Position numbers and translations under genes: made by a program
The notes under the pieces: model-generated
What the model saw: the letters and a program-made list of their open reading frames with translations, nothing else
Databases searched by the model: none
What the model was told of the DNA's origin: nothing
Assembly: GCA_963823665.1 (NCBI GenBank)
Contig: CAWGMQ010000005.1
Span: forward strand, 1,248,001-1,312,000
Length of the DNA: 64,000 nt
Direction of reading: 5' to 3'
Source of the DNA: an uncultured Planctomycetota bacterium
GTDB lineage: Bacteria > Planctomycetota > Planctomycetia > Isosphaerales > Isosphaeraceae
Shown here: piece after piece, positions 2,006 to 17,798 of the stretch
Layout: each line of letters starts with the position of its first letter
Position numbering within the stretch: position 1 is the stretch's first letter

Positions 2006-4372
2006 TCATGGCGTGGAGTGTTGCTTGTCGTTTTCCTCCTTCTCACGCGTGGACATTGGATGGTCGGTCACGCCAAGCAGGGCCGCCGCTTCCGCGCGGA
2101 AGATGGCGAGCTCCGTGTCGCTCGGGCGGCTCGTGTTCATCACGCGAGTTGCGGATCGATAGCGGTCCAAGGCCCGTGCACCGTCGCCGGCGTGATGGTA
2201 TGCCATGGCGAGGACAAAACATCCCAGGGCAATATCGCCCGCTCCGTAGAGGGACTCCGTTCCATGGCGCTCTGGGGCCAGTGGTGGTTCGAGCGTGTCG
2301 ATCGCGGCTCGGAAATCGCCTTTCCGATAGTGGGCGATGCCTTCCAACAACCAGTGAGGACTTAGACTGGGATCATACGGCCGAGCTGAGCGCGTGTCTT
2401 TCTCTTTTTCGATCATCCTCGCCGTCAGCTCGAGGACCCGGCCCGGATCTCGAAAGGAAGCTTCGGGACAAATCGCCAAAAACCACCGCAGGCGACGCAG
2501 GCTCTCGAAACGCTGGGGATCAAGTTCGACAGCGCGAAGATAATCCTTCCGCGCCCGTTCGAAATGATCGATCGCTTGGGATCGTAAACCCGATGCGTAA
2601 AGCTGAAGGCCCAATATGTTGTGGGATGTGCCGAGCACCGCCGCATGGTCTGGCTTGGAGGGGTCCACCGTCACGAGCCGCTCACCGAGACGGATGGCCT
2701 GCTCGAAGGCCGTGATGGCTTCCTTGATTTCCCCGCTCACGAAGCAGAGGTTCGCGAGGTGGTGGCAGGCCTCGATCGACTCGGACAGCACACGCGGATC
2801 GCGACTCGACTCATCGATGAATCCCTCGATCGTCCTGCGGGAGTGTTCCCGAACAGAACGGCGCAACTCTCTGACCTGGGCGGAGTCTGGTAGCGTTCGG
2901 TCGTGCAGTCGCAAGAGCAAATGGTCAAGCCCCTGCAGAACAACCGAAAGGCGATACCCCGCTCGGACACTATTTGCCTGAGCAGTCGCAGCGAATTGTC
3001 TGGCGCGAACTTCCTCATCTCGAGCCCGCTTGATGGCCGCCTGGGTCGTGACCTGCTCCCGTGCGATGAGGACGATCGCGACGGCCAGGATGATGGCTGT
3101 GGTCATCGACGCGGCCGCGGTGCCGACCAGGGTCGAAGGGTGGCGTCTGACCCACTTCGAAATCTGCTCGTACGCACTGGGCCGCTTGGCCTTGATCGGC
3201 TTGTTCTCCAGAAACCGCCGCAAGTCATCGGCCAGTTCCTGAGCGGTCGCGTACCGCGATTCGGGCTCCTTGCTCATCGCCTTCTGAAGGATTGTCTCAA
3301 GCTCGCGCGGGGTTGCGGGATTGAGCTTGCGAGGGGGAGCCGGCTCCTCGTGCGCAATCTTGTGCATGAGTTCCTGCCGGTCCTGACCCTCGATGGCCGG
3401 CCGCAATGTCAATAATTCATAGAGCGTCGCGCCCAGCGAGTAGATATCGGCGCGGTGGTCCAGGTAGCCGCGCCTGGCGAGTGCTTGCTCGGGGCTCATG
3501 TAACGGAGCGTACCCAGCAGGTCGCCGGTCATGGTCAACCCGTTGTCGTCCTGGAGCCGGGCCAGGCCGAAGTCGGTGATCCAGAGGCGGCCGGCCGCGT
3601 CGAGCAGGAGGTTCGCCGGCTTGATATCGCGGTGGATGACGCCCTGGCCGTGCGCGTGATCCAGCGCCAAGGCAGCCTGGATGCCGAGCGTGGCGGCCAT
3701 GCGCATGAACTCGCCGGTCCGGGACGACGGGGTGGGACTGACGGAGCGGGCCGCCGCGGTCACGGCCGGAGACGCGGACGGACCGTCGTCGATGGGCGGT
3801 GAGTGTTCGAAGCTCCGCCGTTCGTTAATCAACTGGGCGAGGGTCTGGCCGTCGATAAACTGCATCGCGTAGTAATGCACCCCGCGCTCGCAGCCGACGG
3901 CATGAATCGGCACGATGTTCGTGTGGTGCAACAGCGCCGCGGCCTGGGCCTCGGTCTTGAACCGCTGGAGCTGGCGCGGGTCGAGCCCGCCGGCCAAGGG
4001 CAGAACCTTCAAGGCAACACGCCGGTGCAGCGAGAGCTGCTCGGCCTCATACACGACCCCCATGCCGCCACGGCCGACTTCGCGCAGGATCCGGAAATCG
4101 CCCACGACACCCAGCTCGGAGGCAGAGATGGCCTCTGACACTGGCAGGCCACATCGATCCCGGACTGCCGAGCGGCTCAGCTCGGCCATCATCTGCAAGG
4201 CGGGGAGCAACTGCCCTAGAGCTTTTGCGTGCTCCGGGTACTGGGCGGCAAAAGCGCTCGGATCGAGCGATTCACCCGCCTGGAGGCGCTCCAGGAACTG
4301 CTCGACCAGCTCGGCCTGGATCGAGTCACTCCTGCTGGCTGAGCGCGGCTCGACGCGTGTGCCAATGCTCAT
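2006..4372 (-). CDS. Hanks-type Ser/Thr protein kinase with TM helix and C-terminal TPR-like helices
   Basis: GRGGMGVV, VALKVL, HRDIKPANLL, DFG, YMSPEQ; hydrophobic segment IILAVAIVLIA; helical repeat C-terminus. Confidence 0.95.
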   Translation of the reverse strand: MSIGTRVEPRSASRSDSIQAELVEQFLERLQAGESLDPSAFAAQYPEHAKALGQLLPALQMMAELSRSAVRDRCGLPVSEAISASELGVVGDFRILREVGRGGMGVVYEAEQLSLHRRVALKVLPLAGGLDPRQLQRFKTEAQAAALLHHTNIVPIHAVGCERGVHYYAMQFIDGQTLAQLINERRSFEHSPPIDDGPSASPAVTAAARSVSPTPSSRTGEFMRMAATLGIQAALALDHAHGQGVIHRDIKPANLLLDAAGRLWITDFGLARLQDDNGLTMTGDLLGTLRYMSPEQALARRGYLDHRADIYSLGATLYELLTLRPAIEGQDRQELMHKIAHEEPAPPRKLNPATPRELETILQKAMSKEPESRYATAQELADDLRRFLENKPIKAKRPSAYEQISKWVRRHPSTLVGTAAASMTTAIILAVAIVLIAREQVTTQAAIKRARDEEVRARQFAATAQANSVRAGYRLSVVLQGLDHLLLRLHDRTLPDSAQVRELRRSVREHSRRTIEGFIDESSRDPRVLSESIEACHHLANLCFVSGEIKEAITAFEQAIRLGERLVTVDPSKPDHAAVLGTSHNILGLQLYASGLRSQAIDHFERARKDYLRAVELDPQRFESLRRLRWFLAICPEASFRDPGRVLELTARMIEKEKDTRSARPYDPSLSPHWLLEGIAHYRKGDFRAAIDTLEPPLAPERHGTESLYGAGDIALGCFVLAMAYHHAGDGARALDRYRSATRVMNTSRPSDTELAIFRAEAAALLGVTDHPMSTREKEENDKQHSTP

Positions 4373-4986
4373 GGCGACTCTCCCAAGATGGATCTCAACC
4401 GCCGGAGCGCGCGGAGGTGACGGACCTTGACGGCCCCTTCGGTCAGGCCCAGGATCTCGGCGATCTCGGCGATGGGAAGTTGCTCCAGGTTGCGCATGAC
4501 CAGGATCTCGCGGTCATGCGGAGCCAAACCCTCCAGAGCGGCTCGGAGCCGCTGACGCAGCTCGTTACGAATCAGGGCTTGACTGGGGCTGGCGCCGCCG
4601 GCCGCCAGGCGGGCCAAGCACAGCACTGAATTGTCAGGCAGCGGCATGGACCAGGGCTCCTCGCGGGTAACGCTCCGCTTCTTCGACCGGATGTGGTGGC
4701 GGTGCAGCTTGACCAGCCGTTCCCATGCGAACTGGCGCAGCCAGGCATAGTAGGGGAGCGGTCGAGAACGAAGGAATTCGTCCAGTTGCTGTGCCGCTTC
4801 GACCAGCGCCTCCTGGACAACGTCGGAAGGGTCCAGTCGCGCGGCGACCCCGCGATCGAGCCGCACGGCGACCATCTTGACCAGCCGTTTGCGATGCCGG
4901 ACCAGTAACTGCTGGCGTGCCGCGATATTGCCTTGGGCGGTGAGCGCGAGCAGCTCCTCGGTGTCAGGCTCCGACACGGTGTTCAT
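4369..4986 (-). CDS. ECF sigma-70 factor, planctomycete STK-associated type
   Basis: Region 2 DPSDVVQEA..WLR; region 4 DREILVMRNLEQLPIAEIAEILG; 4-nt ATGA overlap with the kinase. Confidence 0.92.
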   Translation of the reverse strand: MNTVSEPDTEELLALTAQGNIAARQQLLVRHRKRLVKMVAVRLDRGVAARLDPSDVVQEALVEAAQQLDEFLRSRPLPYYAWLRQFAWERLVKLHRHHIRSKKRSVTREEPWSMPLPDNSVLCLARLAAGGASPSQALIRNELRQRLRAALEGLAPHDREILVMRNLEQLPIAEIAEILGLTEGAVKVRHLRALRRLRSILGESP

Positions 4987-5249
4987 CGAGAGCTTCCTCC
5001 ATCATAATAACCTTCCCAAACGGCGGAAAAGGTTACAGGACGGTACACATTTTCTCACCACACGTTCGAGATCTTACCGGCGGGGCGACGCGAGTTCGAG
5101 AAAAAACAGCCCCATCGGAACTCGTCCCGTGCCGTGAGCCCGAACGCTCCCAAAACACCCCACCCAAGTATTTTTTTGCATTTGCACCGAGGGCTTCCTG
5201 GCATAATGAGTAGACGGACGAGATTTCTGGAGGGGGGCCGGGTGAGGCG

Positions 5250-6275
5250 ATGCCCGAGCAATCAAGCGACGCGACCTTGCTGGAGCGATTCGTCAGTTTT
5301 GGCGAAGAAGCTGCGTTCGTGGCTCTGGTGGAACGCTACGGACCGCTCGTGCAGCATGTCTGCCGGCGCGTGCTTCATAACGAGCACGACGTGGAGGACG
5401 TTTTCCAGGCCACGTTTCTCGTCCTGGCGCGACGGGCAGGCGGTATCGCGTGGTCTGAGTCGGTGGGTGGGTGGCTCGGTGCCGTCGCTCATCGGCTGGC
5501 GCTCGGCGCCCGGTCCGACCTTTCCCGGCGGCACCGGCGCGAGACCTCGCTCTCCACGCTCGCCACGAGGCGGGAAAGCTCCGGGTTGATCGTGGCGGAA
5601 GCCGGGCTGCCCGAAGAGCTTCACCCGTTCGCCGATCCGTTCGCCGAGCTGGGACGCAGGGAGCTCGGGCGGCTGGTCCGAGACGAGCTGCGCGGCCTGC
5701 CTGAGAAATACCGCTCGCCGGTCGTCTTGTGCTATTTCGAGGGCCGGACACACGCGGAAGCCGCTCGGCAGCTCGGATATCCGGCCGGCTCGATCTCGCG
5801 GCGGCTGAAACGCGCCGGAGCCCTCCTGCGGCGGCGGCTCATTCATCGCGGGCTCACGTTCGCAATCGCCTTCCTGCTGGTGGGGCTGCTGCTCTTCTCC
5901 ATTTGCAGGAGCGGCGGCGACCCGCGCGCCACCGCCCTATCCGTTCGATCGGCGATGTCGTCGTTGGAGCCGCGGCACTCCGGAGCGACGAAAATGCAAA
6001 TGCAAGCTCTGATCGATGAGATAGAACGATCCGGTATTGATCGAAGCGAGCAAGAGATTGCCGCCTTCGCCCGCCGAGCTACTCAGGTGGCCGACGAGAT
6101 CGAGCCGTACTCGCCCGGCAAGCTTCCGGACGAATGGCGGAGATACTCGGCCGAGATGCGGCAATCCGCCGTCCTGCTCGCCCAGGCCACCCAGATCCAC
6201 GACCAGGCCTCGATGCTCGGGGCTGCCCGCCGCTTGAATGCCGCGTGTCTGGGATGCCATGAGACCTTCCACTAG
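5250..6275 (+). CDS. ECF sigma factor fused to a TM helix and C-terminal cytochrome c'-like (CXXCH) domain
   Basis: SDATLLERF..DVEDVFQATFLVLARRA..GGWL; region 4 LPEKYRSPVVLCYFEGRTHAEAARQLG; TM GLTFAIAFLLVGLLLFSIC; terminal CLGCH (6246-6260) after a helical W..Y...M...A..LA pattern. Confidence 0.85.
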   Translation: MPEQSSDATLLERFVSFGEEAAFVALVERYGPLVQHVCRRVLHNEHDVEDVFQATFLVLARRAGGIAWSESVGGWLGAVAHRLALGARSDLSRRHRRETSLSTLATRRESSGLIVAEAGLPEELHPFADPFAELGRRELGRLVRDELRGLPEKYRSPVVLCYFEGRTHAEAARQLGYPAGSISRRLKRAGALLRRRLIHRGLTFAIAFLLVGLLLFSICRSGGDPRATALSVRSAMSSLEPRHSGATKMQMQALIDEIERSGIDRSEQEIAAFARRATQVADEIEPYSPGKLPDEWRRYSAEMRQSAVLLAQATQIHDQASMLGAARRLNAACLGCHETFH

Positions 6276-6407
6276 ATGGCGCTCACACTGGTCCGGAGCC
6301 GTGAATCCGGATAGAATGACCATGCTGACTCCCGTGAAGCGATCTGGGCCCTTGTTGCCTACCGTTGAACCCACCCTCGAGATCGCCCTATCCTGGTTAG
6401 GCATAAG

Positions 6408-8668
6408 ATGATGGCGACAGCTACCAAGAAGATTCCCCCGGCACCGCAGACGCCTTCGGGCAGGGAGGAAACCTGGGAATCGGAAACGCTCGGGGACCGG
6501 ATCGCCCGGGGATTTGACGCGATTTATCGCTTTCTGGCTTCCTTGAAGCTCGCGGTGATCTCGATCAGCACCCTGGCGGCGACTCTCGCCTACGCGACCG
6601 TCTTCGAGTCGAGGTATGGCGGAGGAGCGGCTCAGGAGTGGATTTATCGCAGCCCCGGATTCGCGATCCTGCTGGCGTTTCTCGGGATGAACATCCTGTG
6701 CGCGGCCCTGATTCGCTATCCCTGGAAGAAACGCCAGACCGGCTTCGTGGTCACTCATGTCGGGCTGCTGACCCTCCTGGCCGGCTCCTTTTACAGCGTG
6801 CGAACAGCCGACGAGGGCCAGGTGGGCATGGTCGAGGGAGACGTCAAGAGCGAGCTGGTGCGCTCGGAGCATCCCGTGATCCGGGTCTGGGAGATCGACC
6901 CCCATCCGCGGCAGCACGCGGGCCATCAAGATGAATCCCAGGGCGGCGCCGACCACGCGCACACGCCGGAGCGCGTTCGCGAGCTGGACCTGCCGTTTGG
7001 GGCGGGCCGCTTCGCGTGGGGGCCGCACACGCCGCGGGACGTGGGCTTGGTCCAGTCGGTGCTTTCGCGCGTGACCTTCGGCTGGCTCGGGACAGCCACC
7101 TCGCACGAGGATGTCCTGACCACGCCCGACGATCCGTTTCGCCTCGTCGTCAAGGAGTTCCTACCGGCCGCGGACGCGGCCGTCGCGCACGAGCCAGACC
7201 CGAACGGCGTGCCGATGGCTCGGATCGATTTGCAGTTCAAGGGCCCGGCGATGCCCCGCGCCCAGGACGCCTTCCGCTCCGAAAAGGAGCATTGGTTTGC
7301 GCTCGACAAGGAGAGGAAGTTCTACCGGCTCGTTCGCAGCCATCCGCCTGCGATGATCAGCTTCTCTTATGTAGACCGCCCCGAGCTCGTCGAAGATTTT
7401 CTGAAACCGCCGCCTGACGGACCGAATGGCGGTACGGCCCGGTTCCGCTATAAAGATCGAACCGGGGGCAGCCGCACGTTCGACTGGGTGCTCGATGGAC
7501 AGGAGGGCAAGTCAATCGTCCTCCCCGACAGCGACCTGACCGTCAAGCTCGAAAAGATGATCGAGATTCCCACCGACACGCGAGAAACCGCTTTGCTCAA
7601 TCAGTACCTGGGTGACGATCCTGTTCCGGTCGCCTCATTCCAGATCCAGGCCGGCACCAATGAGCCGGTGCTGCACATGGTGCTCGGCAATGTGCCGATG
7701 GTGCCCAACGTCATTCCCACGGCCAAGACATCAAGCAGTCCGGCCCCGGCGCCGCTGGCCGCGATTCACTACATGATCACTCCGACGCTCGACCCCAAGA
7801 CCAACGGCCGCTTTGGCCAGATCGACGTGCTGGCCGGTCCCGACGACGCGCTTTACTATCGCATTTTCGGCCGGTCGAAAGAGGGCGGCAAAGGCGAGCT
7901 TCGCGCCTCGGGCGCCTCGAAAAGGCCAAGCCCATTCTGGCCTTCGGCGGGGGCGCCAGTATGCCGATGACCATCACGTTTCAGGTCGACAGCTACCTGC
8001 CCGCGGCGATCGAGAAGCAGATCTACGAGCCGGTCGATCTCCCCAAGGGCCAGATGGATAACGGCATCCCGGCCTGCCGCGCCGAGATGACAGTAAACGG
8101 CCAGACCAAGGAAATCTGGCTGAGTCGCTCCGAAAACTACCTCGATCATCCGCGGTCGCGCTACCTCACCTTCGGCAACGCCGTTTACGAGCTGATGTTC
8201 GACGTCGATCGCCGGCCGCTGGGCTTTCAGCTCAAGCTCGACGACTTCGATACCGAGTTCGAGCCAGGCACCGAGCAGCCGACGCATTTCACGAGCCAGG
8301 TTCGTCTGACTGACTCCGCAGCGGGTATCAAGGACAAGCCATACACGATCTCGATGAATAACCCGCTCGACCATAAGGGCTACACGTTCTATCAATCGAA
8401 CTACATCCGCGTGCGAGACCCGGACACGGGCAGTTTCACGGGGCAGTTCGAGTCGATTTTCCAGGTGGCCACCAATCCCGGCCGGCCCATCATCTATGGA
8501 GGCTGCGCTCTGGTGGTCCTGGGCACGTTCCTTCAGTTCTACATGCGAGCGGGGGTCTTCACCGACGGCGGCAAGAAAGAGCGCGAATGCGCCCTCGCCA
8601 AATTGAAGAAGAAAGCCGCAAAGCAAGAGACCACAGCCACAACCGCAACCGCGGTAGAAGACCTTTGA
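6408..8668 (+). CDS. resB: ResB/CcsB-like cytochrome c biogenesis protein (System II), split by frameshift near 7915
   Basis: FLASLKLAV..ATVFES..THVGLLTLLAG N-terminal TMs; C-terminal ISMNNPLDHKGYTFYQS..PGRPIIYGG. ORFs 6408-7970 and 7961-8668 join via EKAKPILAFGGGASMPM. Confidence 0.85.
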
Positions 8669-8732
8669 TATGGATCGTTCCAGCCTGATTCCACCCAAGA
8701 ACAATCATGCGATCAAACCGCCAGGAGAAGCG

Positions 8733-11453
8733 ATGATGAACCGAATCGGCACGCGATTGGTCGCGGGGTTGCTGGCTGGATTGTTTGCGGGGCTCGTGCC
8801 CGCTCATGCCTCCCCCGAGCCCAAGCCGAAGTCGCCGGGCACTGGCCGCGCGTATGAGCTGCTCGGCAAGGTGGCCGTCTTGCACGAGGGCCGGATCAAG
8901 CCACTGGATACCGTCGCCCGCGAAGAGATCAAGCAGATCTACGGCCGCGAGACGATCAAGCTGCATGATCCGGCCGAGGAAATTGCCAAGATTCTCGAGC
9001 CCGCGGCCGGGAAGCCCGCGGAGGAGCCCGCCGTCCAGACATGGGGACCGGTCGGCGCGTTCCTTGACTGGATCGTCGTCCCTGAGTTCTGGGACGATCA
9101 GCCCTTCATCCTGGTCGATTCTCTGCCGCTGCGTCGGCGTCTCATCGCCGAGACGATCACAAAACGCCTGAACGCGATCGCCGAGAAGTCAACCACGCCC
9201 GCGGACGAGAAACCACTCTTGCAAAAGCTCGCGGCCCAGGCCGAGCCGGCCCAGGCGGCGCTGGCCAGTCTCGCCCGGACTTCCAAGCTGCCGATCGAGG
9301 ACAAGAAGACCATCGCCGAGCTAGCCGCCAAGCTCACCGAAGAGCACAAGTGGATGACGCCTCGCGAGCTCGACGAAAGCCGGGTATCGGCGGATGGAGA
9401 AATGCACTCCTTCCTCGACTGGGCATCCGAGCTGAACACCTTGCAGCGCCAGTTCGACGCCAACCCCAAGGCGGGCCGGCGGCTCCTGGCGGTCGAGAAG
9501 CGGGCAGTCGAAGTCGCTTCGCGGCTCACGACCTACCAGGCTTACAGCGGCGACCGGATTCAAACAGCGGGTGTCGTGCTGATCATGCCCCGGCCGAACA
9601 ACAGCAAGTATCTGGCTCACACCGCTCTCGCAATCAAGGAGGTGCGCGAGAAGAAAGGCAACCCGGAGACCATGCCGCTCTTCAAGCTCGACGAGCTGAA
9701 GGCGATCTCCACGTACTGGAACAACATTCAACAAGATCAGCGCCACGACCCGACCGAGGATTCGAAATTCGATGAGCGATATACCGCGTGGCTTCGCGAC
9801 AATTCGGTCTGGGTTCCTCTCAAAGTCTTTTTGAAGTCGAATCCCGCCGACTTGATCGAAGGGGGTTACCCCGAAACCCCGACCAAGGCATTTCTGGACG
9901 CCTACCACGCACTCGAGCAGGCTGAATCAAGCTCTCCCGGCCACGTTGCTGAGGATGTGGCGGCGCAGTTCCTGAATGCATCGCGCGAGCTGGGTGAAGC
10001 GGTCAACCCCGCCCGCTACCCGACCGCGACCATGATCGCGCGCGAAACCCATTTCAACTCGATGAGTCCCTTCTCGCTCGCGCCCGTGGGTTATGGCACC
10101 GGCGTCGCCTTGCTCGTTCTGAGCCTGGCCATCGCCACGCTCACGGGAAGACCAGCTCAGAAGTCGCTCGCCGGGATGACGACATACGTCTTGGGGCTCG
10201 TGGGGCTCGTGGCTGGAATCTCACTCGAGATCTACGGCTTCTATCTGCGCGTCGTGATCACGGGCTGGGCACCCGTGACTAATATGTATGAAACGGTCGT
10301 CTGGGTCGCGCTGGTCGCCGGCGTGCTGTCGTTCATCCTGGAGATGATCTACCGAAAGGTGTTCATTGGCCTGGCTGGGTCAGCGGTGGGTCTGCTGGGA
10401 ACAATCACCGCTGCGTCGGTGCCCTTGCTGGACTCGAGCATCAAGAGTTTACAGCCGGTCTTGCGCAGCAACTTCTGGTTGTCGACGCACGTCGTGTGCG
10501 AGGTCTCGAGCTATGCGGCCTTCGCGGTGGCCTGGATGCTCGGGCTGATCGCGACGGCGTACTACTTGACCGCGACTTACCGTCGCTCGCCTCGCGTCCT
10601 GGAGCTGGTGCTTCCCCTGGTGATCGGCGTGCCTCTCCTGCTCTCTGGCGGAGTGGGAGTCGCTGCCTCCTACGGGTTGTTCGGCCCACGGTGGACTTTC
10701 AGCGACGGCGTTGCCCTTTTCGGCGGGCCTCTAACCTTGAGCGGCGATGTCCTGTTCTACATCTTCGGCGGCATTGCGCTGGCTGGAGAGCTCATCACGC
10801 TATCGGTCCTTCTCGCGCTGGGCGGTGAGTTCTTCAACCGGATGACGTTCAATCCCGACGCGCAGCTAGAAACCGCCGAGGAAAAGCACAGCAAAGTCAA
10901 GCTCGACGCTCGGGGTCGCGCCATGCAGCGGACGATCGCGAACGTCAAGCCGCTTTCCAACTTCGTTTATCGCACCATGCAGGTCGGCGTGCTGCTGATC
11001 GCCGGCGGAACGATTCTGGGGGGCGTCTGGGCCGACTACTCATGGGGCCGCTTCTGGGGATGGGACCCGAAGGAAGTCTGGGCGCTCATCACGCTGCTGG
11101 TGTACCTGGTTCCGCTGCACGGGCGCTTTGCCGGTTGGGTGAACACGTTCGGACTCACCGCCGCATCCGTGGTCTGCTTCAACTCGGTGATCATGGCCTG
11201 GTACGGCGTGAACTTCGTGCTGGGAGTGGGCTTGCACAGCTACGGCTTCGTCGAAGGGGGCTCGCAGGGGTTCATGCTCGTCATCCTCTTGGGCCTGCTC
11301 GCGCTGCCGTTTGGCGCCGGCTGGCGGAGGCACCTGGGTCAACACGTCGCGGCGGAGGCCGATCCCGAAATTCAGCCCTCGATCGAGCCGGTCGAATCGG
11401 GGTCGATTCGGACGGGGAAGCCGCGAACAACGCGTGCTCCTGCCGCATCGTGA
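8733..11453 (+). CDS. ccsA: Cytochrome c biogenesis protein CcsA/ResC with long N-terminal extracytoplasmic region
   Basis: WWD motif WADYSWGRFWGWDPKEVW, PVTNMYE, LQPVLRSNFWLSTHV, GLHSY; GRIKPLDT.AR near N-terminus; AGGAG before ATG 8733. Confidence 0.93.
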   Translation: MMNRIGTRLVAGLLAGLFAGLVPAHASPEPKPKSPGTGRAYELLGKVAVLHEGRIKPLDTVAREEIKQIYGRETIKLHDPAEEIAKILEPAAGKPAEEPAVQTWGPVGAFLDWIVVPEFWDDQPFILVDSLPLRRRLIAETITKRLNAIAEKSTTPADEKPLLQKLAAQAEPAQAALASLARTSKLPIEDKKTIAELAAKLTEEHKWMTPRELDESRVSADGEMHSFLDWASELNTLQRQFDANPKAGRRLLAVEKRAVEVASRLTTYQAYSGDRIQTAGVVLIMPRPNNSKYLAHTALAIKEVREKKGNPETMPLFKLDELKAISTYWNNIQQDQRHDPTEDSKFDERYTAWLRDNSVWVPLKVFLKSNPADLIEGGYPETPTKAFLDAYHALEQAESSSPGHVAEDVAAQFLNASRELGEAVNPARYPTATMIARETHFNSMSPFSLAPVGYGTGVALLVLSLAIATLTGRPAQKSLAGMTTYVLGLVGLVAGISLEIYGFYLRVVITGWAPVTNMYETVVWVALVAGVLSFILEMIYRKVFIGLAGSAVGLLGTITAASVPLLDSSIKSLQPVLRSNFWLSTHVVCEVSSYAAFAVAWMLGLIATAYYLTATYRRSPRVLELVLPLVIGVPLLLSGGVGVAASYGLFGPRWTFSDGVALFGGPLTLSGDVLFYIFGGIALAGELITLSVLLALGGEFFNRMTFNPDAQLETAEEKHSKVKLDARGRAMQRTIANVKPLSNFVYRTMQVGVLLIAGGTILGGVWADYSWGRFWGWDPKEVWALITLLVYLVPLHGRFAGWVNTFGLTAASVVCFNSVIMAWYGVNFVLGVGLHSYGFVEGGSQGFMLVILLGLLALPFGAGWRRHLGQHVAAEADPEIQPSIEPVESGSIRTGKPRTTRAPAAS

Positions 11454-13300: not shown

Positions 13301-13312
13301 AGGACAGGATTG

Positions 13313-13722
13313 ATGTCTCGAGAGAATCCCGAGCCTTTGACGGTGGCTGAGTGGAAGGTGATGAAGATCGTGTGGCGACGAAAGAGCTGCTCTGCCCGCG
13401 AGGTGTATGAGGAGGCGGGCGAGGCACACGGCTGGGCGCCGACCACGACCAAAACGCTGCTGCGCCGCCTTGTGGAAAAGAAACACCTGACGGCAACTGC
13501 CGTGGGATCGAGTTTTCTGTACCGGCCGGCGCGCCGGCGTGGCCGTCGCTGGCTGGAGCGGCGGACGCTCTCCTCGAGAACACGCTCGAAGGCATGGGGG
13601 GCAAGCTCCTGGCGTATATGGTCAAGAAGGTTCAGTTGACGCCGGAAGACATGGCACAGCTCCGCGCGATTCTCGTCGAGCATCAGCAGGCCGCAGGAGA
13701 AGGGAGTGAGGCGCCGCCATGA
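13313..13722 (+). CDS. blaI: BlaI/MecI/CopY family repressor, frameshift near 13534
   Basis: LTVAEWKVMKIVW..WAPTTTKTLLRRLVEKKHL..FLYRP. Adding one C gives ..GGKLLAYMVKKVQLTPEDMAQLRAIL.. ending in an ATGA overlap with the next gene. Confidence 0.9.
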
Positions 13723-16700
13723 TCCCTGTCGAGCTCCTGAACACCTGGGGTGGGTTCTGGTTCGGGCTGATGACACGGACATTGTTAGAGACAACCGCCC
13801 TCCTGGGCGTGATGCTCGTGCTATGGCTGCCGCTGCGCAAGCGAATGTCGGCGAAGCTTGCGCACGGGCTTTTCTGTCTGGTGCTCCTCAAGTTGCTCAT
13901 CCCGATTCCGGTTACGGGGCCGGCATGGCAATCGCTGGGATGGAAACTCGAAGCAACGGAGTGGCTTTCGGCCTGGACGTCGCCCGGCGAACTGCCACGC
14001 CGAGAACCGGTCGCGAAGTCGCCGGAACCGCCCTGGTCGCCGCCGACGACTGGCGACCTCGGTGCGAGCCTGGCTGAGGTGTCATCTCCACAGCCGATCG
14101 GGGCCGTGGTTCAAGCGGTTTCGCCTGAGGGTGCCGGCGTGCCTGTGACCACCCCTCCCGTGGTAGAGCGCGCGAGGCCCGCGCTTTCGATCCAGGCATT
14201 CTTGATGCTCGCTTGGAGCTGTTGTGCCGGACTTCTGCTGGCGCGCTTTGCCTGGGCGATGAAGAGGACCCGGCGCCTCATGCGCCAGGCGGTACCGCTT
14301 CCGCCGGATCGTCTGCCGATCGACCTCGACGCATTGCCGCGCGCCCTTGGCCTTCGTAGCGGCGTTCGGTGGGCAGTCGATCAGAGGCTGGACTCACCCG
14401 CGGTGGGCGGCCTTTTCCGGCCGGCCGTGATCGTTCCCCCCGACCTGCACGAGAGCCTGACGCCCAACCAGTTGACGTGGGTGCTCCTTCACGAGCTGGC
14501 GCACGTGCGCCGCGGCGATCTCTGGGTGGTGATGTTTCAGCGGGTTCTGCAAGCGGTGTTCTTCTTCAACCCGGCGGTGCATCTGGCGAACTGGATCATT
14601 GACGAGCTGCGGGAATACGCTTGTGACGATGCGGCGCTCGCCGCCTGCAAGACATCAAGGGGCGAGTGCGGCGAAGGGTTCTTGACGATCATCGAGCGGT
14701 CGGCCGGGCGCCCGCCCGTTTCCGCGCCGGCCCTGGGACTTTTCGAAGGCAAACTGCTGATACGCCGTCGCCTGGTGCGTATTCTGGATAATCGCCGCAC
14801 GATTCATGCCCGGCTATCGCGGCCGGCGGCTTGCGGGCTGGTCGTGCTGGCGATCGCGCTGTTCGCACTGCCATACGGCGCGCCGGGAAGAGTCTCGGCG
14901 GGGCCGCACCGGAATCGCTCATCCGCCGGCGATTCGAGTGTGTCGATCAAAGAGCGATCGCGCGTGCCGGACGAACCAGCGAGCTACCGCCCGGGTGCGG
15001 TCTGGCACCATCAAGGGACGCAGGACCGCGGCGGAACCGCGAGCGAGGCGGGGTCTTCGATCGGCCGGACCGTGGTGCTCGCAGTCGCATATTCACCGGA
15101 CCGAACGATGCTGGCTTCGGCCGGGGATGACGCGGTGATCCGATTGCGTGATCTGGCCTCCGGCCGCTGGGCCGGGGAGCTCGAAGGACACGAAGACGCC
15201 GTCTCGTGTTTGGGCTTTTCTCCGGACGGCAAGACACTTGCGACCGGGAGCTACGATCGCACCGTGAAGCTCTGGGACGTCGGTACGCGCCGGCTACTCA
15301 AAACTTTCTGGGGGCACACCAACTGGGTGTTTTCCGTGGCATTTACACCCGACGGCGCATCTCTGGTCACGGGCGGTCACGACAAGAGCGTGCGAATCTG
15401 GGACATTCGCACCGGGCGTGAGACGGCTAGACTAGCCGGACACACGGCATCGGTTCGGGCGATTGCCGTCGCAGGCGGCGGTGGCTCGACCATGATTGCC
15501 TCCGGGGGAGCGGACCAGGCCGTGCTGGTATGGGACCTGGGCACCGGTTTGCTTCGAGCGCGGCTGGAAGGGCACAAGGGGATGGTGCGGGCGCTTGCGT
15601 TTGAGGCCGACGGCACCACGCTTGCCGCCGGTGGCGAGGACGGTGACGTAAGACTGTGGGACATGAAGTCCAACCAGCTTCGCGCGACGTTGTCCGGCCA
15701 TTCGGACATGGTAACCTGCGTGGCATTCTCGCCGGGCGGCGAGATTCTCGCCTCGGGAAGCCTTGATGCGAACGTGAAGCTCTGGGAGATGAGCTCCAGC
15801 CGCGAGCGGGCATCGCTGCAAGGCCACCTGGACGGCGTCTCTGCGCTCGCCTTTGCGCCGGACGCCCGTCAGATGGCCACGGCTGGGTTCGACGGTTCCG
15901 TCCGGCTCTGGGAGCCTGCCGCCCCGATCTTCTCTCCAACCGCTTGCCTCCCGTATCCCGGCGAGCCCAGCAATCTGGCGTTCGCGCCCGACGGCCGGTC
16001 AGTGCGAGCAGCCGGCACGGCGGGAATCATCCGGTGGGATGTGAAGTCCGGCTCGGCCGTGCCGCCTTCGGGGCAAGACGATGCGACGGCACTGGCCGCG
16101 GCTGCCGACGGCTCGCGGTACGTGACGGTCGGGCCGGGCAAGAAAGTCGTGGTGTATGACGGCCGAAGCGACAAGCGGCTTGCCACCTTCGACGGGCACG
16201 ACGGCGACGTGCGAGCGATTGCCTTTTCGGCTGATTCGCGGCAGATCGCCTCGGGTGACGATAACGGTGTCGTGCGCTTGTGGGACGCAATCGCATTGCG
16301 TTTAGCGGGATCTCTGCCTGCGCTCGAGCTTCCGATCACGTGCGTGCAGTTTTCGCCCGATGGCAAGACGCTTGCAGTCGCGACGTGCGATCTACACGAA
16401 GCGAAAAAAGGGGAAGTGACGCTGTGGAATATCGTGACGCGAGAGCTCGTTGGCGTGCTGCACGAAAATGAAAAGGGCGTCCGATCGGTCGCGTTTTCAC
16501 CAGACGGAGCGACGATCGCAACCGCCAGCGCGGTTGGGGTGATCCGACTTTGGGATGCGGCCACACGCTCGGCGCGCTTTTCATTGACATACGGCGATTG
16601 CCGATCAGTCGCGTTTTCGCCCGATGGCCGTGTTCTCGCATCTGCTCATATCGGGGGCGACGTGGTGCTCTGGAGCAGCGAGGGAGGCCGGCAGCTCGCC

Positions 16701-17798
16701 CTGCTCTCGGGTCATCGCGACGAGGTTTCGCACGTTATCTTTTCTCCCGTTGGGCATTGCCTCGCGACGGCCGGAAAGGCCGGGACCGTCAAGCTCTGGA
16801 ACCTGGGCACGCGAAGGCAGACGGCACGGGCGACCCTGAAAGGAGATCTAACCTCGGTGAGGTCGGTCGCGTACTCACCAGACGGCAAGACGCTGGCCGT
16901 CGGCGATGGTCCGAACGATGGCACCGGAACGGTGACGCTCTGGGATGCGGCAGCCAGGAAGGTGATTGCAACGCTCGGCGAGCATGAGCGAGGCGTCGTC
17001 GCTCTCGTGTTCTCGCCGGACGCAACGAGTCTCGCGTCGGGAAGCTGCGACGGCACCATCCGGATCTGGGACCTGGCGCAGTCCACGTGCCGGCATGAGC
17101 TGCCCGGGTTGAGCGGAGTGACCGAGCTTGCGTACTCGCCCGACGGCAAATTGCTGGCCTCTGCCGGGGAAGGGAACATTGTGACGATCTGGGACGTGGA
17201 GACCGGCAGAGAGGCGTGTCGACTCACGGACCTTCGGTGGCCGGTGTACAGCGTGAGCTTTTCGCCCGACGGCACTCGCCTGGCGACCGGCGGAGGGGCA
17301 CCCGACGGTCGCCCGGGTGCGCGCGGCGAGTTGAAGATCTGGGACGTGGCGAAGCGGTCGGTGGTGGGAACGCTCGACGGCCACGAGAAAGCGGTCTTGG
17401 CGGTTTGTTTCTCGCCCGACGGCCGAAACCTGGCTTCCGGCAGCCTGGACGAGACGATTCGTTTGTGGGACGTGAGATCGATGCAGAGCCAGCTCACGAT
17501 CGGGGGTATGTCCCATTGCGTGCAGGCTCTGGCGTACTCACCAGACGGCAAGACGCTGGCCTGGTCAGGGCGCCACGACGGCCTGGTTTCGCTCTGCGAT
17601 GCCGTGACGGGAGCGGAGGTCAGCCGGTTCGTCGGCCATCGTGGGCCAGTGCGGGGAATTGCGTTCGCACCTGACGGGTCGGGATTGGCCACAGGCGGCG
17701 ACGACCGATCGATCAAGCTGTGGGATGTGCAGGTTCAGGCATCGTCCCTGTCCCAGTCCACGATACGCTCAGGGGAAAACCACGGGGGCTCGAGATGA
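13719..17798 (+). CDS. BlaR1/MecR1-type M56 metallopeptidase fused to ~21 WD40 repeats
   Basis: N-terminal TMs; SPAVGGLFRPAVIVP, VLLHELAHVRRGD, FFFNP, REYACDD; TM; then 21 GH..FSPDG..WD-type repeats by manual count. Confidence 0.93.
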   Translation: MIPVELLNTWGGFWFGLMTRTLLETTALLGVMLVLWLPLRKRMSAKLAHGLFCLVLLKLLIPIPVTGPAWQSLGWKLEATEWLSAWTSPGELPRREPVAKSPEPPWSPPTTGDLGASLAEVSSPQPIGAVVQAVSPEGAGVPVTTPPVVERARPALSIQAFLMLAWSCCAGLLLARFAWAMKRTRRLMRQAVPLPPDRLPIDLDALPRALGLRSGVRWAVDQRLDSPAVGGLFRPAVIVPPDLHESLTPNQLTWVLLHELAHVRRGDLWVVMFQRVLQAVFFFNPAVHLANWIIDELREYACDDAALAACKTSRGECGEGFLTIIERSAGRPPVSAPALGLFEGKLLIRRRLVRILDNRRTIHARLSRPAACGLVVLAIALFALPYGAPGRVSAGPHRNRSSAGDSSVSIKERSRVPDEPASYRPGAVWHHQGTQDRGGTASEAGSSIGRTVVLAVAYSPDRTMLASAGDDAVIRLRDLASGRWAGELEGHEDAVSCLGFSPDGKTLATGSYDRTVKLWDVGTRRLLKTFWGHTNWVFSVAFTPDGASLVTGGHDKSVRIWDIRTGRETARLAGHTASVRAIAVAGGGGSTMIASGGADQAVLVWDLGTGLLRARLEGHKGMVRALAFEADGTTLAAGGEDGDVRLWDMKSNQLRATLSGHSDMVTCVAFSPGGEILASGSLDANVKLWEMSSSRERASLQGHLDGVSALAFAPDARQMATAGFDGSVRLWEPAAPIFSPTACLPYPGEPSNLAFAPDGRSVRAAGTAGIIRWDVKSGSAVPPSGQDDATALAAAADGSRYVTVGPGKKVVVYDGRSDKRLATFDGHDGDVRAIAFSADSRQIASGDDNGVVRLWDAIALRLAGSLPALELPITCVQFSPDGKTLAVATCDLHEAKKGEVTLWNIVTRELVGVLHENEKGVRSVAFSPDGATIATASAVGVIRLWDAATRSARFSLTYGDCRSVAFSPDGRVLASAHIGGDVVLWSSEGGRQLALLSGHRDEVSHVIFSPVGHCLATAGKAGTVKLWNLGTRRQTARATLKGDLTSVRSVAYSPDGKTLAVGDGPNDGTGTVTLWDAAARKVIATLGEHERGVVALVFSPDATSLASGSCDGTIRIWDLAQSTCRHELPGLSGVTELAYSPDGKLLASAGEGNIVTIWDVETGREACRLTDLRWPVYSVSFSPDGTRLATGGGAPDGRPGARGELKIWDVAKRSVVGTLDGHEKAVLAVCFSPDGRNLASGSLDETIRLWDVRSMQSQLTIGGMSHCVQALAYSPDGKTLAWSGRHDGLVSLCDAVTGAEVSRFVGHRGPVRGIAFAPDGSGLATGGDDRSIKLWDVQVQASSLSQSTIRSGENHGGSR

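Follow-up and report, generated by a model that had tools for sequence, protein, structure and literature searches.

A sigma factor fused to a predicted class II cytochrome c tail upstream of resB-ccsA in Isosphaeraceae, and its possible role in sensing cytochrome c maturation

The extracytoplasmic function (ECF) sigma factors of group ECF57, as described by Casas-Pastor et al. 2021 (PMC7826278; this and the other cited sources are represented by the parts of them that were available), carry a cysteine in sigma2 and in sigma4 and a C-terminal transmembrane (TM) extension, for which a release from the membrane has been proposed. That description gives homeodomain-like or WD40 extensions and a number of TM helices of about two, calls the genomic context and the promoters 'not conserved', and in its available part names no cytochrome extension. 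A sigma factor that appears to share with this group the features testable here, namely sigma2 and sigma4 only, occurrence in Planctomycetes, both cysteines and a C-terminal TM extension, is encoded by the gene P0001 in a 64,000-nucleotide stretch (hereafter the window) of contig CAWGMQ010000005.1 from an uncultured bacterium of the family Isosphaeraceae (assembly GCA_963823665.1), where it precedes the System II cytochrome c maturation genes resB and ccsA. Unlike the described ECF57 members, this fusion has one TM helix, a cytochrome tail with the CXXCH motif, a fixed resB-ccsA linkage and a strongly conserved promoter.

Sigma factors fused, as here, to a membrane-spanning regulatory tail are exemplified by IutY of Pseudomonas putida (ECF243), activated by Prc/RseP proteolysis, and by SCO4117 (ECF52) (PMC8999054). 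Their tails, however, are anti-sigma or carbohydrate-binding domains for outside ligands, none being, in the available text, a substrate of the machinery controlled, whereas in P0001 no anti-sigma domain was seen between sigma4 and the helix. The four-helix bundle with a C-terminal CXXCH, as in the tail, is that of such class II cytochromes as Kusta0087 (NaxLS; PDB 6R6M/N/O), cb562, c556 and c', which are free periplasmic carriers or gas binders; the tail, by contrast, is tethered to a sigma factor, has a Met at its predicted distal site like c556 and b562, and tolerates the loss of helix A. A regulator in one operon with System II biogenesis genes is found in Bacillus resABCDE, but ResDE, a two-component system, controls a broad respiratory regulon, and its sensor is, in the part available, no CXXCH substrate (PMC5047918). 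The available main text of Pinto and da Fonseca (PMC7671368) makes no mention of cytochromes; where its supplementary file 18 lists the Pfam matches in planctomycete ECF extensions, weak matches included, one column is for Cytochrom_C_2, and the bare pairing of a sigma with this domain may therefore be already tabulated there.

In the literature searched, with subscription journals mostly outside the search, nothing was found on the fusion, its linkage or its promoter, nor any regulator sensing the output of cytochrome c maturation as its own substrate. P0001 is regarded as a real, conserved membrane-fused ECF variant, with a sensing principle that is possibly new. It is proposed, with a confidence somewhat above even, that the fusion serves as a built-in test substrate of ResB/CcsA, the tail being degraded when it stays in the apo form, the sigma being freed and resB-ccsA being raised.

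The fusion gene, its linkage and its distribution

The features of the locus are as follows.
5250..6275, plus strand: fusion gene P0001, an ECF57-type sigma factor, a TM segment and a class II cytochrome c domain, 341 aa
5325..5528, plus strand: sigma region 2, residues 26-93 (Pfam Sigma70_r2 PF04542, E 2e-9), including the ECF57 cysteine Cys38
5673..5831, plus strand: sigma region 4, residues 142-194 (Pfam Sigma70_r4), including Cys161 and the recognition helix
5853..5906, plus strand: single predicted TM helix, residues about 202-219 (hydropathy script), with basic residues on the sigma side
5925..6272, plus strand: cytochrome tail, a predicted extracytoplasmic four-helix class II cytochrome c domain (AlphaFold, structure match)
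6246..6260, plus strand: CXXCH heme-attachment motif, C333, C336 and H337 (CLGCH)
6408..8668, plus strand: resB (ccsB), for heme attachment by System II (the 3' part matches Pfam ResB with E 6e-21)
8670..11453, plus strand: ccsA, System II cytochrome c synthetase, an open reading frame (ORF) of 927 aa (PF01578 Cytochrom_C_asm, E 8e-28)

The original prediction read P0001 as one uninterrupted frame with sigma regions 2 and 4, a single TM helix and the C-terminus ACLGCHETFH, in agreement with the ORF scan, Pfam and hydropathy, and placed resB 132 bp downstream of the fusion stop, with the ATG at 6408, and then ccsA in the same direction, as was borne out by the coordinates and by the ResB and Cytochrom_C_asm/CcsB matches. 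An indel dividing sigma and cytochrome was not found: the gene is matched by gapless exact contig pieces of independent runs (5321-5518, 5534-5696, 5721-5942, 5858-5963, 6004-6091 and 6201-6482), which give partial coverage, and the fusion stands in one frame in 41 of the 51 orthologues, being broken in 10. By these pieces and the 41 one-frame orthologues an artefactual fusion is ruled out. The fold prediction of the full-length protein reached a predicted template modelling score (pTM) of 0.35, with only the tail well predicted, and the ESM Atlas search with the fusion returned generic planctomycete ECF clusters only (best score 0.87).

The recognition helix of the fusion, G-S-[MI]-S-R-R-L at residues 180-186, with R184 at sigma-E position 172, is group-specific, that of the ECF57-type paralogues being mostly G-T-V-x-[SG]-R-L. 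Cys38 is kept in 89 and Cys161 in 95 of 96 CXXCH-bearing sequences; the sets of 41, 43 and 96 sequences used throughout were selected for CXXCH, and as to this motif only the linked-locus count given below is unbiased. According to the hydropathy script, all 41 orthologues have one hydrophobic segment, and K/R are commoner before than after it in 36/41, a charge bias which predicts that the sigma lies inside and the tail outside (N-in/C-out). The tail would thus be on the same side as the WWD site of CcsA, which lies on the outer side of the membrane (PMC6299221).

Orthologues were recognised with a profile built from 16 of them, to which full-length matches gave E <1e-92 and the paralogues, by the sigma part only, about 1e-64 or weaker; counting by a loose DNA pattern for region 4 was defeated by noise. 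Of 121 genomes of the family, no fewer than 52 have the fusion, a lower bound with 17 candidates scored per genome; it was analysed in 51 genomes, the window's own included and broken copies added (52 loci, one G104 duplicate being dropped), the orthologue of G122 having been recognised later via its resB region. It is single copy, apart from one duplicate in G083, and its named carriers are Isosphaeraceae metagenome-assembled genomes and three Singulisphaera, including S. acidiphila DSM 18658. The next gene is resB in 47/51 genomes, and with G122 in 48, the contig of G065 ending too early for judgement. CXXCH, in any frame, is found 143-729 nt before resB in 47/47 linked loci, 9 of them frame-broken, and the three Singulisphaera are unlinked.

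Two further carriers, G493 and G255, belong to a neighbouring order, where a pattern search gave 2 fusions among 6 matches in 267 genomes, 4 of the 6 having been examined; the class-wide search scored 5 candidates per genome, and what was found outside the family is therefore a minimum. In G493 the order is fusion, one lipoprotein-like gene, resB; in G255 the contig ends just past the fusion gene. The intervening gene of G493 (L270:2159-3220) encodes 350 aa with a weak LpqN match. When a quick tree was made from the sigma part, the 43 orthologues in it formed one clade (SH-aLRT support 100) against 30/59 paralogues, and among the 150 best representatives CXXCH was found in 59/77 sequences with the Arg-type helix versus 3/73 others. 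Among 20 resB regions from initially unmatched genomes, 4 had the fusion and 16 had none.

This distribution bears on the view that the fusion is a frozen accident, an ECF57 sigma having captured a cytochrome c gene, with the helix acting as a cleaved signal peptide, the two parts separating constitutively and heme going unsensed. Planctomycete ECF extensions can indeed arise by insertion beside unrelated genes (PMC7671368), some of the helices are short and Ala-rich, with A-x-A runs after them in close relatives, and the fusion is dispensable, given the many relatives without it upstream of resB and the early stops in G064 and G065. However, one ancient clade across two orders has kept both promoter and linkage, CXXCH is retained even in a tail of 81 aa, and no stand-alone homologue of the tail was found directly upstream of resB in the 16 fusion-less regions; this view is held to be quite improbable. 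The stops, at about codon 71 of the fusion in G064 (L135) and G065 (L112), both of genus g17, together with the lack of a fusion upstream of resB in G017 (L027) of the same genus, suggest an ongoing loss. In G016 an unrelated small CXXCH gene lies 2 kb from resB. A second sigma-cytochrome fusion, also with an ECF57-type sigma, is encoded in the window's own genome (L149:1501-3525; G000:C2, from 131907), its extension having two CXXCH motifs and a match to di-haem oxidoreductase (DHOR).

The cytochrome tail and its heme-attachment motif

The assignment of the tail to class II cytochromes is supported in part, by the four-helix model and the CXXCH motif, the Pfam match to Cytochrom_C_2 (P0001 294-340, E 3e-4) reaching 22.1 bits, under the gathering cut-off of 26.5; the cut-off was passed by 2 of 10 homologues scanned, P0047 (27.6 bits) and P0051 (30.5 bits). 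P0051 is a 685-aa variant with the same recognition helix, a long insert and the cytochrome c' domain above that cut-off. In the AlphaFold model of residues 226-341 (predicted local distance difference test, pLDDT, 84) a helical bundle was obtained with helices at 2-12, 26-35, 39-59, 68-90 and 94-115 in the numbering of the model. Its best VIA structure match was Kusta0087 (6r6n_A; Z 12.8, root-mean-square deviation 2.4, 102 residues aligned), which among natural proteins also came out first by sequence profile (E 0.002), and Foldseek listed cytochromes c' and PsbQ with no E <0.001.

Met236 (5955-5957) aligns with chain position 32 of 6r6n_A, a Cys mutated per the entry titles, and with position 7 of b562, both of which we take to be distal ligands; the alignment was read off the range ends, with helix A taken as gap-free. 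In five-coordinate gas-binding cytochromes c', the distal site in helix A is held by a non-ligating Leu, Phe or Tyr, while in c556 and b562 a Met of helix A is the sixth ligand, giving a His/Met low-spin heme. The distal Met is present in 30/43 orthologues, the remaining ones having no conserved Leu/Phe; on the tree its distribution calls for 6 changes, of which strong branches force 4 or more. The tail seems, by this model-based comparison, to resemble His/Met class II cytochromes rather than five-coordinate c', and a Met at the predicted distal site with its recurrent loss disfavours NO/CO sensing. The label of an NO/CO-binding cytochrome c', attached to the tail from its letters, is not supported, the predicted distal residue being Met or helix A having decayed.

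The mean identity among orthologues is 0.16 in helix A with the linker and 0.23-0.41 in helices B-D, compared with 0.62-0.66 in the sigma regions, and the tail varies from 81 to 121 aa, CXXCH being kept even in the tail of 81 aa. This motif is the sole invariant feature beyond the membrane, its His being as invariant as both cysteines. As far as sequence conservation can tell, selection appears to act on heme attachment rather than on the heme pocket.

The same data bear on two alternatives to the test-substrate reading. In the first, the holo-cytochrome itself would be the sensor: the tail would change its conformation with the redox state of its heme, or when NO, CO or some other ligand took the place of the Met, and the sigma would be released or activated, so that cytochrome c maturation would be tuned to respiratory conditions. 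The solved structure closest to the tail, Kusta0087 of NaxLS, is called an electron/NO shuttle (bioRxiv 10.64898/2026.02.25.707902), the Met is kept in most orthologues, Singulisphaera retains the sensor without the resB linkage, and the oxygen/redox regulator ResDE is encoded with System II genes (PMC5047918). The repeated loss of the distal residue and of helix A counts against it, as does the lack of conservation of the distal Leu/Phe/Tyr typical of five-coordinate c', and on balance this alternative is considered unlikely, if worth keeping in view. In the second, the CXXCH cysteines would form a thiol/disulfide or metal switch reporting the periplasmic redox state, with heme attachment incidental. 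The oxidation of CXXCH does compete with heme attachment (PMC3420020), but the invariance of the His along with the cysteines, the position of the motif, which is that of class II cytochromes in a four-helix fold, and the linkage to a heme ligase make such a switch very improbable.

Promoters, read-through and the surrounding window

Two promoters were predicted at the locus.
5177..5207, plus strand: P_sig, predicted ECF-type autoregulatory promoter, with -35 TGCATT at 5177-5182, an 18-nt spacer and -10 GCATAAT at 5201-5207
6288..6317, plus strand: P_res, housekeeping-type resB promoter, CTGGTC, 18 nt, TAGAAT

The P_sig family consensus is TGCATY-N17/18-GCATAAT, its spacing being the same as in the sigma-E consensus, and GCAT[T/C] is found in a 55-nt window upstream of the sigma gene in 51/51 orthologues, against about 9% by chance. 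P_sig also precedes the fusion in G493, G255 and G122, the last, out-of-sample, with a score of 22.3, while in 16/16 fusion-less regions the score was <=13.5 up to 3 kb upstream of resB; in two further Singulisphaera P_sig was not found within 1.5 kb upstream of resB. The strict pattern has a sole match in the window's own genome, the fusion's own site.

An expectation-maximization fit was made to the promoters of 59 ECF57-type paralogues; its -10 block was seeded by eye, and the second -35 base did not enter the score. This base tracks sigma residue 172 across the paralogues with a confident promoter call (56/59), Ser going with G in 32/34, Gly with T in 11/14, Val, Ile or Thr with A in 6/7 and Arg with C in 1/1. 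The pairing agrees with the S172-G and T172-A rule of group IV sigmas reported by Lane and Darst, in which S172 contacts -34G and S or T at 172 pairs with G or A (PMC1540707). The orthologues of the fusion have Arg at residue 172 in 96/96, partly by selection, and C as the second -35 base. From this covariation we infer that the fusion sigma would recognise its own promoter P_sig, that is, be autoregulated. The 59 paralogues, from 6 genomes (L141-L169, L208-L237), share the promoter GxA[T/A][T/C]-N16/18-GCA[C/T/G]TA, and those without R176 often lack the first G of the -35 element.

The loose P_sig pattern gave 26, 20, 12, 13 and 12 matches in five genomes versus 10, 11, 6, 6 and 9 in controls. 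A wider regulon found no support in the 38 inspected loci (30 of 83 loose-pattern matches and 8 of 8 of another set, some overlapping), where only the sigma's own site was convincing as a promoter; further targets may lie among the other matches.

The resB promoter had been suggested earlier as the regulated target. However, P_res is of the housekeeping type and its pattern (CTGG-N20-TAnAAT) occurs in 45/47 linked loci as well as in 8/16 fusion-less resB regions, with near-matches in others; hence it predates the fusion and is probably not the sigma target, the likely target being the promoter upstream of the sigma gene. A terminator-like hairpin between CXXCH and resB was seen in 1/47 loci and none on the plus strand of window 4980-6500, a near-absence that makes read-through from P_sig into resB-ccsA plausible. 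In one RNA run, contigs of relatives span sigma, resB and ccsA; such contigs reveal neither strand nor co-transcription. In the resB leader of about 90 nt (window 6318-6410), blocks rich in pyrimidines are kept across the family, as is AGG(T/C)G, which resembles a ribosome-binding site, and RNAalifold found no consensus pair of a structured RNA in 10 leaders.

The resB gene, with one match in the window's own genome, is split there by a frameshift near 7905-7960 (ORFs 6408-7970 and 7961-8668), a break missed by the original prediction. An assembly error is the likeliest cause, because most close relatives have resB as a single ORF of 725-850 aa, frameshifts are scattered over several related assemblies and the contig of one relative has one extra base near 7908; no exact-match contig was found across the break. 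The ccsA product matches TIGR03144 with E 1e-42, below the TIGR03144 cut-off, and a second, shorter Cytochrom_C_asm gene with a 317-aa frame lies at G000:C4:1912095-1912724.

Upstream in the window, on the minus strand, a divergent ECF sigma gene (4369-4986) is followed by one for a Ser/Thr kinase with TPR repeats (2006-4372), a pair (2006-4986) that resembles kinase-linked planctomycete ECF groups and is not beside the fusion in close relatives. Downstream (13310-17798, plus strand), a BlaI-like repressor gene, which looks truncated (Pfam positions 1-68 of 115), precedes that of a 1359-aa protein which, with its HELAH motif and numerous WD40 repeats, looks like a BlaR1-type sensor.

The proposed circuit and its meaning

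A single conserved protein, whose gene lies upstream of resB-ccsA, unites the sigma, the hydrophobic helix and the CXXCH tail; the sigma is predicted to face the cytoplasm and the tail the outer side, where CcsA works. When loaded with heme, the tail would fold and become protease-resistant, the sigma staying tethered and off. When heme supply, thiol reduction or ResB/CcsA capacity is short, the apo tail would be degraded, and then an RseP-type protease would free the sigma; M50 proteases are present in 4/4 genomes searched, indicating possibility only, and a precedent for the proteolytic release of a fused sigma is given by IutY (PMC8999054). The free sigma is predicted, from the covariation of promoter and residue, to fire its own promoter TGCATT-N18-GCATAAT, and the transcript would continue into resB-ccsA, adding to the basal housekeeping promoter. 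With more machinery, the newly made sensor would be matured and the loop closed. Heme binding by the tail, proteolysis and read-through are inferred steps. This maturation-reporter model fits best because CXXCH is invariant, the pocket is dispensable and the self-promoter leads into the ligase genes. The initial notion of a one-component membrane sigma with feedback gains support from CXXCH, the N-in/C-out bias, the synteny in two orders and a predicted self-promoter without a terminator before resB, its gas-sensing branch being disfavoured.

The circuit may also be drawn with the opposite polarity, the apo-protein being destroyed together with its sigma and the heme-loaded form acting, which would give a positive feed-forward on resB-ccsA when heme is available. 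The same anatomy, synteny and promoter evidence serves it, and it too needs only CXXCH; however, it requires an active tethered sigma or a second release signal, and proteolysis activates in the sole fused ECF tested in the available literature (PMC8999054), so that this polarity is deemed improbable.

Several observations weigh against the maturation-reporter model. The principal of them is that the three Singulisphaera keep the sensor, the Met and the promoter unlinked from resB: the intact sensor gene is followed there by a GFO/IDH/MocA oxidoreductase gene, and the resB regions are without P_sig, so the protein persists without the proposed loop. In many relatives resB-ccsA occurs without an upstream fusion, and a promoter of its own stands before resB. 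As helical bundles go, the fold match is of middling quality, in terms of both Z and Foldseek. The Met is still kept in the majority noted above, and several bundle residues are well conserved (W296 in 82/96, L310 in 87/96), which is what one would expect if the tail were a genuine, folded cytochrome engaged in redox chemistry. The covariation counts are inflated, since the paralogues and the orthologues are kin and not independent, and R172-type sigmas with other extensions (18/77 without CXXCH; G544) could read P_sig as well.

If the model is true, the bacterium has a direct measure of how much its cytochrome c maturation delivers, the sensor itself being a substrate. The ECF57 sigmas, with 88 matches in the window's own genome, have no signal or promoter with an experimental test in the available parts of the sources searched, and the fusion offers for them heme on CXXCH as a defined input, together with a promoter and a specificity residue that are both predicted, the whole being open to reconstruction in E. 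coli. A genetic reporter of heme-ligase activity or of its inhibitors is one possible use. In its broadest form, held at about even confidence, the proposal is that of a one-protein quality-control circuit, in which a dummy cytochrome c would be the sigma's test piece, its maturation alone silencing the sigma and its unmatured state turning the machinery up, while the ECF57 paralogues would constitute a large natural self-recognising set with a residue-to-base code at the -35 element.

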